DNA of 64,000 nucleotides, from NCBI GenBank assembly GCA_029856145.1, contig JAHQWK010000025.1, positions 30,582 to 94,581 on the forward strand, written 5' to 3'. Under the pieces are notes generated by a model that did not search any database, was not told where the DNA came from, and saw only the letters and a list, made by a program, of their open reading frames with translations. The DNA is from Promethearchaeia archaeon. GTDB taxonomy: Archaea > Asgardarchaeota > Lokiarchaeia > Sigyniarchaeales > SOKP01. Made by a program: the position numbers and the translations under genes. Positions 40,722 through 51,375 of this stretch are shown here, one piece after another (position 1 is the first letter of the stretch; each line of letters starts with the position of its first letter).

Positions 40722-41576
40722 ATGTCAGACGCAGGGATTGAACCGACTTATATCGGAAAAAATGAAAACCTGGTATTTATCATTCCCAATGAACTCTTTA
40801 ATATGAGCTTAGGTCCGGCGGAAGTCTTGGATCGCGAAACTGCTAAATTATTTAGTAAATATCTCAGAGGTACATTTAAAGGGTTTCAACAATCAAGGAA
40901 GACGAAATATGGGAACGAAAATAATACAAAAACAGAAACCACTTCTGATTTTTGGGAGCAATTTGAAAAAAAAGCTAGCGGACTTGATGTAAATTTTATA
41001 GGGTATACTCCTGTTAATGAAAACTATATTTTTAAAGGTCTTAAAGTATACGGAAAAAATGCAATAGTACTTGCAATGGAAATGAAATGGGATCAAATCA
41101 AAACAGCTCCAGGAGCTATTTGTGAAATTGAAGTATTTAGGGTCTACAAAGTATTAGGTGATGTAACAATTGAATTGGCTGAATTTTTAAAGGAACAAGG
41201 TTATAAAAGTGAAGCACATCATCCTTTTGGTGGAAAACTTCTATATGGACCACATGCTATAGCTGCTAATTTAGGAATAATGGGAAGAAATGGATTAATT
41301 ATTACACCTGAATTTGGACCACGACAAAGGTGGAGTATAATTACCACCGATGCAGAAATCCCTAAAGCAAAAGAAAGAGACTTTAGTGAATTAAAGGAAT
41401 TCTGTGAAAGATGTGGTATCTGTGTGAAGGAATGTATAGGAGGAGCAGTTTTAGAAACCCCAATTAAAAAAGGAAATGGTGTAGTCACACATATAGATCG
41501 ATCTAAATGTATTCAAAGTATATTGGATAATAATTATTGTAGTTATTGCTTGAGGATATGTATGCCTTCAAGTTGA
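40722..41576 (+). CDS. Reductive dehalogenase/QueG-like cobalamin- and 2x[4Fe-4S] protein
   Basis: 'A.AANLG.MGRNGLIITPEFGPRQR...ITTD', FCERCGICVKEC, C...CSYCLRIC; no Tat signal. Confidence 0.75.
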   Translation: MSDAGIEPTYIGKNENLVFIIPNELFNMSLGPAEVLDRETAKLFSKYLRGTFKGFQQSRKTKYGNENNTKTETTSDFWEQFEKKASGLDVNFIGYTPVNENYIFKGLKVYGKNAIVLAMEMKWDQIKTAPGAICEIEVFRVYKVLGDVTIELAEFLKEQGYKSEAHHPFGGKLLYGPHAIAANLGIMGRNGLIITPEFGPRQRWSIITTDAEIPKAKERDFSELKEFCERCGICVKECIGGAVLETPIKKGNGVVTHIDRSKCIQSILDNNYCSYCLRICMPSS

Positions 41577-41686
41577 TCCTAAAAATTAACTTAATATAAA
41601 TTTTTTATTATCAAATTATAAAAGTTATATTCAAATTGTTTTAACCTTTTTAATAAACTGTAATAAACCTACTTTCTTGAGAAAAA

Positions 41687-50129: not shown

Positions 50130-50235
50130 AAAAATGGTTTGATAAAATTTAATAAAAATATTTAAAATTTATTCCAAAAATTTGGGAAATTTAAGAAAAA
50201 AGAATAGTATAGTATATAGATAGAGTTGGAATTGC

Positions 50236-51375
50236 ATGGAAGCAATGGCAGAATATTTGATAAAGATTGAAGATTTTTCCAAAATCTTAGCAACTTTATT
50301 AAAAGAAAAAGCTGTAGATAAAATTATTGGCGCTCAATTGAGGGTCGATAAAAAATCCGGGAATATAGATAGATTCACGGTTCAACCAAAATTAGTAGAA
50401 AAAGAGACAGATGTGAAGGATTTTCCATTAACTCCTTTAATTGCATTTGGATATGCAAGAACAGATTCTGCTTCAAAATATCTGCATAAATCTGTTGCTG
50501 GTGCGATGAATGAAAAAGTAGGGTTAATTGCTCGTCCTTGTGATACAAGGGCACTAATAGAACTTGCAAAGATCAAGCAAGTAAATCTTGATAATCTCTT
50601 TATAATTGGTATTGAAGATAGAGGAATGCTTCCCAAAGCAGGACGAGAAATGAGAGCAATTAAGGATGTTGATGCTACTAAAATTATCAAAGAAAAAGTA
50701 GGAGATAAAGGACTTATTGTTATGATGGAAGATGGAAGCACAAAAGAACTTAATCTTACTGTTGCTGAAAATTGTTTAAGATGCTATCGTAAAATTCCCG
50801 TTATCGCGGATTTAACTGTTAGTGATCTTGGTATTCCAGTTGATTCAGATGAGATAATCCTAAAGGTATATTCAGATAAAGGAAGTGATATTTTAGATAA
50901 ATCAGGAGTTAAAACAAAAGCACTTCCAGATAAAGAGAAAAAGGCTCATTCAGATAAATTTAATGAAATAATCGAAAAAGCAAAAGAAAAACGAGCAAAA
51001 GATTTAGAAGAATGGGATAAAATTTCACAAGAAGAAAAAATTACTGAATTACTTAAGTGTACCGCATGTGGAATATGCATCCGTGGATGTCCTGTTTGTT
51101 ATTGTATAGATTGTATTCTCACGAAAAAGAAGAAAGAGAAGAAAATTGATAATGTGACTTACCAATTAACCCGAATAGCTCATGATGCTGATAGATGCGT
51201 GGAATGCGGTAATTGTGATAATAATTGTCCTCAAAATTTACCGTTGTCATTATACTTCCAATCTTTGAATGAGACCTTTAAAGAAAAATTTCACTATGAA
51301 GCAGGCATATCTCTTGATGATATTCCATTTCGATCTGGAAAAGCAATTTCCCAGATGGAATTAGAAAAAACCTAA
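50236..51375 (+). CDS. FdhB/FrhB-family (FlxC-like) Fe-S subunit
   Basis: VGLIARPCDTRALIELAK..QVNLDNL.IIG; CTACGICIRGCPVCYCIDC; CVECGNCDNNCP. Confidence 0.85.
   Translation: MEAMAEYLIKIEDFSKILATLLKEKAVDKIIGAQLRVDKKSGNIDRFTVQPKLVEKETDVKDFPLTPLIAFGYARTDSASKYLHKSVAGAMNEKVGLIARPCDTRALIELAKIKQVNLDNLFIIGIEDRGMLPKAGREMRAIKDVDATKIIKEKVGDKGLIVMMEDGSTKELNLTVAENCLRCYRKIPVIADLTVSDLGIPVDSDEIILKVYSDKGSDILDKSGVKTKALPDKEKKAHSDKFNEIIEKAKEKRAKDLEEWDKISQEEKITELLKCTACGICIRGCPVCYCIDCILTKKKKEKKIDNVTYQLTRIAHDADRCVECGNCDNNCPQNLPLSLYFQSLNETFKEKFHYEAGISLDDIPFRSGKAISQMELEKT

Follow-up and report, generated by a model that had tools for sequence, protein, structure and literature searches.

With which enzyme does the HdrA-type core encoded at a locus of the Lokiarchaeia exchange its electrons? 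The question is raised by seven genes that lie head to tail on the plus strand (40722-51375) of a stretch of 64,000 nucleotides, here called the window (C25:30582-94581), from a Lokiarchaeial genome assembly of 3.55 Mb in 32 contigs. These genes encode, in order, an RdhA-like Fe-S protein, a fusion of HdrD with GltD (HdrD::GltD), a tungsten-type AOR, its polyferredoxin, an HdrA and an MvhD that contain selenocysteine (Sec), and an FdhB-like subunit. Gene calls, confirmed for each gene by Pfam, NCBIfam and PDB searches, agree with the gene set and common orientation given in an initial annotation made from the sequence alone, which had read the locus as an operon for a candidate undescribed electron-bifurcating hub. 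Our analysis suggests a different answer: the locus brings separately conserved redox modules side by side, and its HdrA core, which has a flavin-less arm, is plausibly wired to the tungsten-type AOR, a reading that we put forward tentatively and to which we give somewhat less than even weight.

The last of the seven genes (50236-51375, plus strand, 379 aa) encodes an FdhB/ElpB-like Fe-S subunit without the FAD motif, which we name FdhB*. A profile built from 21 orthologs and searched against the PDB matched Hdr-bound FdhB and ElpB chains from end to end (9t1s_M, 8e-66; 7bkb_E, 8e-63; 8rvu_E, 6e-57), and the AlphaFold2 model (pLDDT 92) superposed on FdhB/ElpB chains with Foldseek TM scores of 0.80 and 0.79, so its placement in the FdhB family is correct. 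In FrhB, a helix that begins with GG has the FAD pyrophosphate at its N-terminus, and Cys104, Cys134, Cys192 and Cys195 coordinate the flavin-proximal cluster (PMC3591093). FdhB* has IEDFS at the position of the GGxVT motif, at the start of the equivalent helix, as do all 21 aligned orthologs; GG is absent from every Lokiarchaeial ortholog, with acidic and aromatic residues in its stead. Additionally, it has IGIED where FdhB has IGxxC, which places Asp128 at the cluster-ligand position equivalent to Cys134 beside three cysteines (102, 180 and 183). The seeming lack of GGxVT and the presence of IGIED had been noted in the initial annotation, and both are borne out by our alignments. Among the orthologs sampled, the fourth cluster Cys is retained only in families f5 and f7 (f1 denotes the family of the window, f3 to f7 and f15 other families, and g2 and g6 genera). 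The 11 C-terminal Cys are invariant, even where most ligands of the flavin-proximal cluster are gone in some lineages, and PF04422 was not detected in FdhB* by the Pfam profile search. In two orthologs, L049:13892-15007 (genome G010) and P0133, three of the four flavin-proximal ligand positions are gone (PAD for PCD, ND..RA for NC..RC) and the C-terminal cluster motifs are intact.

A FastTree phylogeny of 135 FdhB relatives, whose deep branching is indicative only, grouped FdhB* with clades that likewise have no GG (an FlxC-like clade and a large Desulfobacterota clade; 94% SH-like support), apart from the GG-bearing clade of methanogen FdhB/ElpB and from the canonical FrhB paralogs of the same genome. 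The FlxC-like clade contains a paralog from the window's genome that belongs to an Flx-like module (C7:61124-65663), and the nearest clades outside the Lokiarchaeia are those of Desulfobacterota, encoded in HdrL-MvhD operons. FdhB* has the features of such GG-less FdhB-like proteins: no GG, C-terminal cluster motifs that are kept, and mvhD and hdrA as adjoining genes. We think it likely, judging from these motifs, that FdhB* is an Fe-S arm without flavin rather than a dehydrogenase that uses F420. It would derive from the FdhB/ElpB subunits associated with Hdr, with the Fe-S chain kept and the FAD site lost, and would serve as a wire or docking subunit. Since the FAD site would be lost, the F420 site would be lost with it, and a core whose FdhB* is a wire and not a dehydrogenase must exchange electrons with a separate catalytic enzyme. 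FdhB* was found in 144 of the 161 genomes of the class. The most conserved Hdr triad of the Lokiarchaeia thus probably has a flavin-less FdhB-like arm, and matches to FrhB/FdhB in these genomes should therefore not be taken to indicate F420 chemistry.

The two genes upstream of fdhB* encode Sec-HdrA (47600-49576, plus strand, 658 aa, in-frame TGA codons at 47669 and 48224) and, 3' of it, the Sec-MvhD/VhuD adaptor (49584-50048, plus strand, 154 aa, TGA codons at 49638 and 49791). Residues 14-654 of HdrA align with residues 3-650 of 9sfi_A (6.5e-206), the match to 5odc_A (6.5e-192) is also full length, and NF040770 was matched over profile positions 1-640 (731 bits, 1e-219); the domain set is complete, with the N-terminal Fe-S, TrxR-like FAD, inserted ferredoxin and C-terminal ferredoxin domains. 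MvhD has the FlpD domain (PF02662, 2e-38; NF045873, 1.6e-38), and its two TGA codons, at positions 19 and 70, both stand opposite Cys in the alignment. All four TGA codons of the pair are opposite conserved Cys of Cys-type paralogs or orthologs, the genome has a tRNA-Sec, and a lokiSECIS common to both genes follows mvhD (50057-50129, plus strand), with an AUGA core at 50069, a 9-bp stem, an 11-nt A-rich apical loop and a folding z-score of -3.6. The arrangement is identical to that of the tandem Sec-HdrA/VhuD pairs described in Lokiarchaeota, which have two Sec codons per gene and a single lokiSECIS after vhuD (Mariotti et al. 2016, PMC4989117), so this part of the locus is already known. The FdhB-only Hdr cluster is also of a known kind, and the locus is not undescribed as a type: HdrL-type operons, Sec-HdrA/MvhD and loci with FdhB and no FdhA were drawn in 2009 (PMC2702500), HdrA clusters with FdhB only were reported for ANME-1 in 2022 (PMC9012536), and the Elp-Hdr structure was solved in 2025.

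Upstream of hdrA lie the genes of the large subunit of the AOR (aldehyde:ferredoxin oxidoreductase), which is WorL/AorB-like (44652-46583, plus strand), and of its four-cluster polyferredoxin small subunit, which is WorS/AorA-like (46584-47138, plus strand). The large subunit has both AOR domains (PF02730, 3.8e-66; PF01314, 2.7e-91), and its best PDB matches were 8c0z_A (4.9e-94, full length) and 1aor (3e-87), which places it closest to Aromatoleum AorB and Pyrococcus AOR; BamB (4z3w_A) was matched only partially (8.5e-47, residues 23-424). The polyferredoxin matched 9mqx_E (8.8e-25), 6x6u_B and 8c0z_C, with FwdF/FmdF weaker, and thus finds its nearest counterparts among small subunits of tungsten oxidoreductases of the multi-subunit kind. 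This AOR is one of 10 paralogs in the genome, only two of which have a polyferredoxin partner, and these two alone have an HdrD-like gene upstream; the second trio of HdrD-like, AOR and polyferredoxin genes lies at C19:29012-32628 (L112). In the window the HdrD-like gene is the fusion (41687-44449, plus strand, 920 aa), found by Pfam and NCBIfam, which has an HdrC-like Fer4 dicluster with two [4Fe-4S] (residues 29-126), a GltD/NfnB part (170-657; 4ylf_B of NfnB type, 2.7e-73) and two HdrB-like CCG domains (693-915); HdrC (5odc_C) was matched at 2e-9. The GltD/NfnB part is nested within the first CCG domain, with the CCG start YFMGC before it and the CCG motif after it. As far as its domains indicate, the fusion alone could be an NADPH-dependent bifurcating disulfide reductase that uses an NfnB-type flavin and the HdrC/HdrB-like domains.

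The initial annotation had described the locus as lacking HdrBC, hydrogenase and FdhA. No separate hdrBC genes are present at the locus, and FdhA (TIGR01591) was not found above cut-off in the window's genome or in four relatives; the three molybdopterin enzymes matched in this search (a DmsA-type reductase, FwdB and one unassigned enzyme) are none of them near Hdr genes. However, the fusion carries HdrC- and HdrB-like domains, so the locus is not devoid of HdrBC-type domains, and HdrBC pairs, VhuAG and the Flx-like module are encoded elsewhere in the genome. Of these, HdrBC and VhuAG are canonical partners, whose presence at other loci formed one part of what the annotation had named as refuting its hub. 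In total, the genome has 17 proteins with CCG domains, several HdrBC pairs among them; its HdrA genes are six short ones and about seven that are long and rearranged, and it has 11 MvhD and about nine FrhB-family genes.

Gene order was then compared across the class, as the annotation had proposed. The HdrA-MvhD-FdhB* triad is contiguous in 46 of 48 f1 loci, the two exceptions being contig ends, and it is contiguous in f4-f7 too. Among the 37 f1 loci with sufficient flank, AOR-polyferredoxin lies upstream of the triad on the same strand in 32, with polyferredoxin and hdrA between 204 bp and 10 kb apart (300 bp or less in 7 of the 32; 461 bp in the window). The fusion is lineage-specific: its ortholog is co-oriented in 12 of the 37 loci, inverted in 3 and absent from 22, some genera have a long HdrA and MvhD in its slot, and genus g2 also retains the block of fusion, AOR and polyferredoxin, about 24 kb from the triad. 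The synteny expected by the annotation thus stands for the triad, across most of the class, and for AOR-polyferredoxin in f1, but a fixed operon does not: with gaps of 0.2-24 kb, unrelated inserts and a patchy fusion, the locus consists of two or three modules that tend to stay in one another's vicinity.

The neighbourhood of AOR and HdrA, for which the annotation had proposed a functional tie, is found again in family f3, which counts closed genomes of 4.4 and 6.0 Mb among its members. Of nine informative f3 loci, eight have a compact cluster of hdrC-like, hdrA, mvhD, a 359-aa gene, aor and polyferredoxin genes, and its AOR is an ortholog of that of the window (47-51% identity, versus 35% or less for paralogs). 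Inherited gene order alone is hard to credit because the same AOR stands beside two HdrA-MvhD lineages in two gene orders, and the position of the ortholog beside a different HdrA-MvhD paralog argues for real coupling. In the searchable literature, with subscription-only papers outside the search, we found no paper describing this recurrent AOR-HdrA/MvhD neighbourhood or an AOR-HdrA association in Asgard archaea, nor a description of the flavin-less state of the class-wide FdhB*. The 359-aa gene between mvhD and aor is conserved in f3 (L197:12930-14009, minus strand; equivalents in L198, L201, L202, L204 and L207); its product has no Pfam match and no similarity to the RdhA-like protein or FdhB*, and may be a lineage-specific adaptor. 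In the 6.0-Mb genome, a gene for a 2056-aa alpha-2-macroglobulin-like protein (MG2, A2M, TED; L197:3489-9659, minus strand) lies between the AOR cluster and FdhB*.

Sec-HdrA, Sec-MvhD and FdhB* would form a canonical HdrA-type flavin-based bifurcating unit, with MvhD as [2Fe-2S] adaptor. Its likeliest partner in f1 would be the adjacent two-subunit AOR with polyferredoxin, giving an Hdr-polyferredoxin-tungstoenzyme system that would be analogous to BamBC with BamE/F/D and to the Elp/Fdh-Hdr-Fmd supercomplexes. The high-potential outlet would be of HdrBC type; in the window's genus it could be HdrD::GltD, which would bring a site for NAD(P)H as well, and otherwise an HdrBC pair from another part of the genome. 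Our data establish the gene identities, the recoding for Sec, the lost flavin motif and the patterns of gene order, whereas we infer the physical coupling of AOR and HdrA as well as the direction of electron flow, for which two layouts can be envisaged. In one of them, AOR-polyferredoxin would sit on FdhB* in the place of FdhA and electrons from aldehydes would enter through MvhD and leave by two routes, ferredoxin and an outlet of HdrBC type or to NAD(P), as in class IV tungsten oxidoreductases; this layout fits minimal clusters without any other dehydrogenase. In the other, polyferredoxin would sit on the ferredoxin domain of HdrA and the low-potential branch would run AOR backwards, from carboxylate to aldehyde (about -580 mV), on the pattern of Bam and Fmd, while VhuAG or the NfnB-like module would supply the input; this layout makes better energetic sense. 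It is possible, if on balance doubtful, that in Lokiarchaeia a four-cluster polyferredoxin forms the physical link between an HdrA core with a flavin-less docking arm derived from FdhB and a genuine AOR, which would make this a third Hdr-polyferredoxin-tungstoenzyme machine beside Hdr-Fmd and class II benzoyl-CoA reductase. If so, it could either reduce carboxylic acids below the potential of ferredoxin or split aldehyde electrons between ferredoxin and a higher-potential acceptor, and the design of bifurcation module, polyferredoxin and tungsten enzyme would extend to ordinary aldehyde and acid chemistry.

Three other explanations of the locus were considered. FdhB* has full-length homology and a common fold with ElpB/FdhB, which would be expected if it oxidised F420H2 at a bound FAD and passed the electrons via MvhD to HdrA, as ElpB does in Methanothermobacter; furthermore, CofH and CofD are above their cut-offs in the genome (both are present in f1, f5, f6 and f7), and of its three further Sec-HdrA/MvhD pairs two are followed by canonical FrhB-type genes with intact motifs. 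This F420 reading was downgraded on the motif and distribution evidence and is in our view very improbable: besides the missing GG pyrophosphate motif, the undetected PF04422 and the replaced or lost flavin-proximal ligands, CofD and CofH were not found in four f3 genomes, all four of which have FdhB*, and its nearest relatives outside the Lokiarchaeia are from Desulfobacterota. The doubt that the annotation had expressed about F420 use by this subunit can be sharpened to probably none, and we found no evidence for the possible F420 link that it had kept for the module as a whole. Taken as a single hub, the module that it had proposed would be one complex of all seven products, dependent on selenium and tungsten, in which aldehyde oxidation is coupled at once to ferredoxin, to NAD(P)H, to F420 and to a thiol/disulfide pair. 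The co-orientation of the seven genes in the window, the same order in 12 of 37 f1 loci and a domain set that parallels BamBCDEF plus an NAD(P)H module are in line with such a hub. It is nevertheless improbable, given that 25 of the 37 loci have the fusion inverted or not at all and its block lies far from the triad in g2, that FdhB* is unlikely to use F420, and that reduction of ferredoxin by aldehyde (about -580 mV) needs no bifurcation.

The third explanation is an ordinary Mvh-Hdr system, in which HdrA-MvhD, with FdhB* as auxiliary Fe-S subunit, serves VhuAG and HdrBC of another contig in H2-dependent bifurcation to ferredoxin and disulfide, while AOR-polyferredoxin and the fusion are independent ferredoxin- and NAD(P)-linked neighbours. 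We regard it as a substantial alternative, if less likely than not, and much of what weighs against a wiring of the core to AOR speaks for it. VhuA-MvhG-HdrC-HdrB at C13:119528-123856 is not accompanied by HdrA or MvhD genes and may be the triad's true partner, and the genome has a single [NiFe] large subunit for six short HdrA genes. The distance between AOR-polyferredoxin and triad reaches 13-24 kb in g2 and g6, and relatives have unrelated inserts between polyferredoxin and hdrA (GNAT, a corrinoid protein, a URO-D/MtaA-like methyltransferase; for instance L065:8163-11006, congeneric); with such variable gaps and inserts, an order that is kept within one family may be due to common descent instead of selection. 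At the f4-f7 loci, which have the triad, no AOR ortholog was found within the 9-13 kb fetched upstream, so the triad is independent of an adjacent AOR. Further points weigh against the wiring. In a 200-genome sample of the Asgard phylum, with few f5-f7 genomes and no f4, the AOR ortholog occurred only in f1, f3 and one f15 genome. The HdrA linked to AOR in f3 is orthologous to the Cys-type HdrA of C13 (64% identity) and not to the Sec-HdrA of the window (41%). Additionally, a 461-bp AT-rich gap precedes hdrA in the window, which suggests a separate promoter; a scan for sigma-70 promoters and terminators did no better than on shuffled sequence, with a model that does not apply to archaea. As regards the arm, methanogen FdhB and ElpB likewise deviate from FrhB at the K-Y loop, and the loss of the flavin is deduced from motifs. 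However, an ordinary Mvh-Hdr system leaves unexplained the fixed adjacency of FdhB* and MvhD across the class and the AOR beside HdrA-MvhD in f3, in another order and with another paralog, and three other Sec-HdrA/MvhD pairs and two HdrA genes of Cys type are rival candidates for this function.

Wiring of the HdrA core to AOR, which we tentatively prefer, finds parallels in several known systems. In methanogens, ElpB/FdhB docks on the N-terminal domain of HdrA and on MvhD, and from HdrA's inserted ferredoxin domain a polyferredoxin takes the low-potential electrons on to Fmd, a tungsten enzyme (PMC12350162). With ElpABC-HdrABC of M. marburgensis (8RVU) and FdhAB-MvhD-HdrABC-Fmd of M. hungatei (7BKB), in which polyferredoxin wires HdrA to a very-low-potential tungsten or molybdenum pterin enzyme, the locus has in common HdrA, an MvhD-type adaptor and the fold of the FdhB-type subunit with its C-terminal Fe-S domain. 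It differs in that the FAD motif and one Cys ligand are missing from FdhB*, neither ElpA/FdhA nor adjacent HdrBC is present, the pterin enzyme is an AOR and not Fmd/Fwd, and the host is not a methanogen. In class II benzoyl-CoA reductase, input reaches the HdrA-type BamE via the Sec-containing BamF, and the outputs of BamE are a low-potential one via BamC to the tungsten subunit BamB, of the AOR family, and a high-potential one to the HdrD-like BamD (bioRxiv 10.64898/2026.04.10.717634). With Bam[(BC)2DEFGHI]2 of Geobacter metallireducens the locus shares a tungsten subunit of the AOR family, a small subunit with Fe-S clusters, a bifurcating flavoprotein of HdrA type, a Sec MvhD-type adaptor and an HdrD-like CCG subunit; the window has a counterpart of every Bam subunit type except the NuoEFG-like BamGHI, in whose place it has the FdhB-like arm and the GltD module. 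However, its AOR is of the AorB/PfAOR type, its HdrA is single (658 aa) and not a fused double one, and its HdrD-like part is not conserved in relatives. Since the AOR falls outside the BamB clade, the reading of the locus as a Bam complex was discarded.

Among tungsten oxidoreductases, the class IV enzymes (WorLSABC) bifurcate aldehyde electrons to ferredoxin and NAD(P)+, and a 2026 classification lists the Geobacter enzyme GmBCR as the only one with Hdr-type subunits (PMC13328260). The pair of large subunit and four-cluster small subunit (WorL, WorS) is common to the locus and to class III AorABC and class IV WorLSABC, whereas homologs of AorC or WorABC are absent from the locus, where the candidate bifurcating module is of HdrA type; no NuoE/F-type or WorABC-type domains were present in the Pfam results for the cluster. 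The nearest relatives of FdhB* outside the Lokiarchaeia lie in HdrL/HdrA-MvhD-'FdhB' loci of Desulfobacterium autotrophicum and other Desulfobacterota, whose operons encode a CCG protein, HdrA::GltD (HdrL), MvhD, a GG-less FdhB-like protein and a second HdrA. These have in common with our locus a Sec-HdrA type, MvhD, a GG-less FdhB-like protein without FdhA, and a GltD/NfnB part and a CCG protein in the operon, but GltD is inserted in HdrA in the Desulfobacterota and in HdrD in the Lokiarchaeon, no AOR was found in the bacterial flanks, and FdhB* is only 24-30% identical to the Desulfobacterota proteins. FlxC, reportedly (Ramos et al. 2015) a flavin-less Fe-S subunit of the FdhB family in FlxABCD-HdrABC, offers a further likeness, that is, a GG-less FdhB-family Fe-S subunit beside an MvhD-type protein, feeding HdrA. 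Unlike there, no FlxA/FlxB-like genes adjoin FdhB*, which forms a clade of its own.

Lokiarchaeia are eukaryotes' nearest relatives among the archaea, and an AOR-Hdr pairing may matter for their energy metabolism: models of eukaryogenesis depend on how they dispose of reductant from amino-acid fermentation, and their Hdr paralogs are usually labelled just 'HdrABC/MvhADG'. The recurrence of a tungsten-type AOR beside HdrA-MvhD raises the hypothesis of an Hdr-coupled AOR, and cultured strains carry the f3 arrangement: hdrC-hdrA-mvhD-X-aor-polyFd is present in Promethearchaeum syntrophicum and Lokiarchaeum ossiferum.

At the upstream end of the gene set, the RdhA-like Fe-S protein (40722-41576, plus strand, 284 aa) has no Pfam match and matched TIGR02486 under its cut-off (1e-19); its ortholog lies upstream of AOR in many f1 loci. 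A divergent gene for a 1202-aa SNF2-type helicase (37043-40651, minus strand) is the left neighbour of this RdhA-like/AOR block and is kept there across f1. Elsewhere in the genome, C26:80211-83593 (L116) encodes FwdB above cut-off, adjoined by an FwdA-like protein (295 bits versus a cut-off of 392.75); the genome thus appears to encode formylmethanofuran dehydrogenase, a second possible sink for low-potential electrons from HdrA. On the same contig (C26:18243-25342, L107), DsrE-like, HdrB, HdrA, MvhD and MvhG-like (417 aa, Oxidored_q6) genes accompany one for an FrhB::GltD fusion of 823 aa, whose GltD part is inserted so as to separate the N- and C-terminal FrhB domains. Lastly, Hdr gene arrays are present at C30:8242-30746 (L105, L106), C7:61124-74989 and C7:148944-157545 (L108, L109). 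They hold a Sec-HdrA with four TGA codons, long permuted HdrA of 1004-1153 aa, including one MvhD fusion, HdrD-like genes and several canonical FrhB paralogs, together with the Flx-like set of MvhD, GG-less FdhB-like protein, Fer4_22 protein and NAD-binding flavoprotein. Expansion and fusion of HdrA in Loki- and Thorarchaeota are already on record (PMC11237513).

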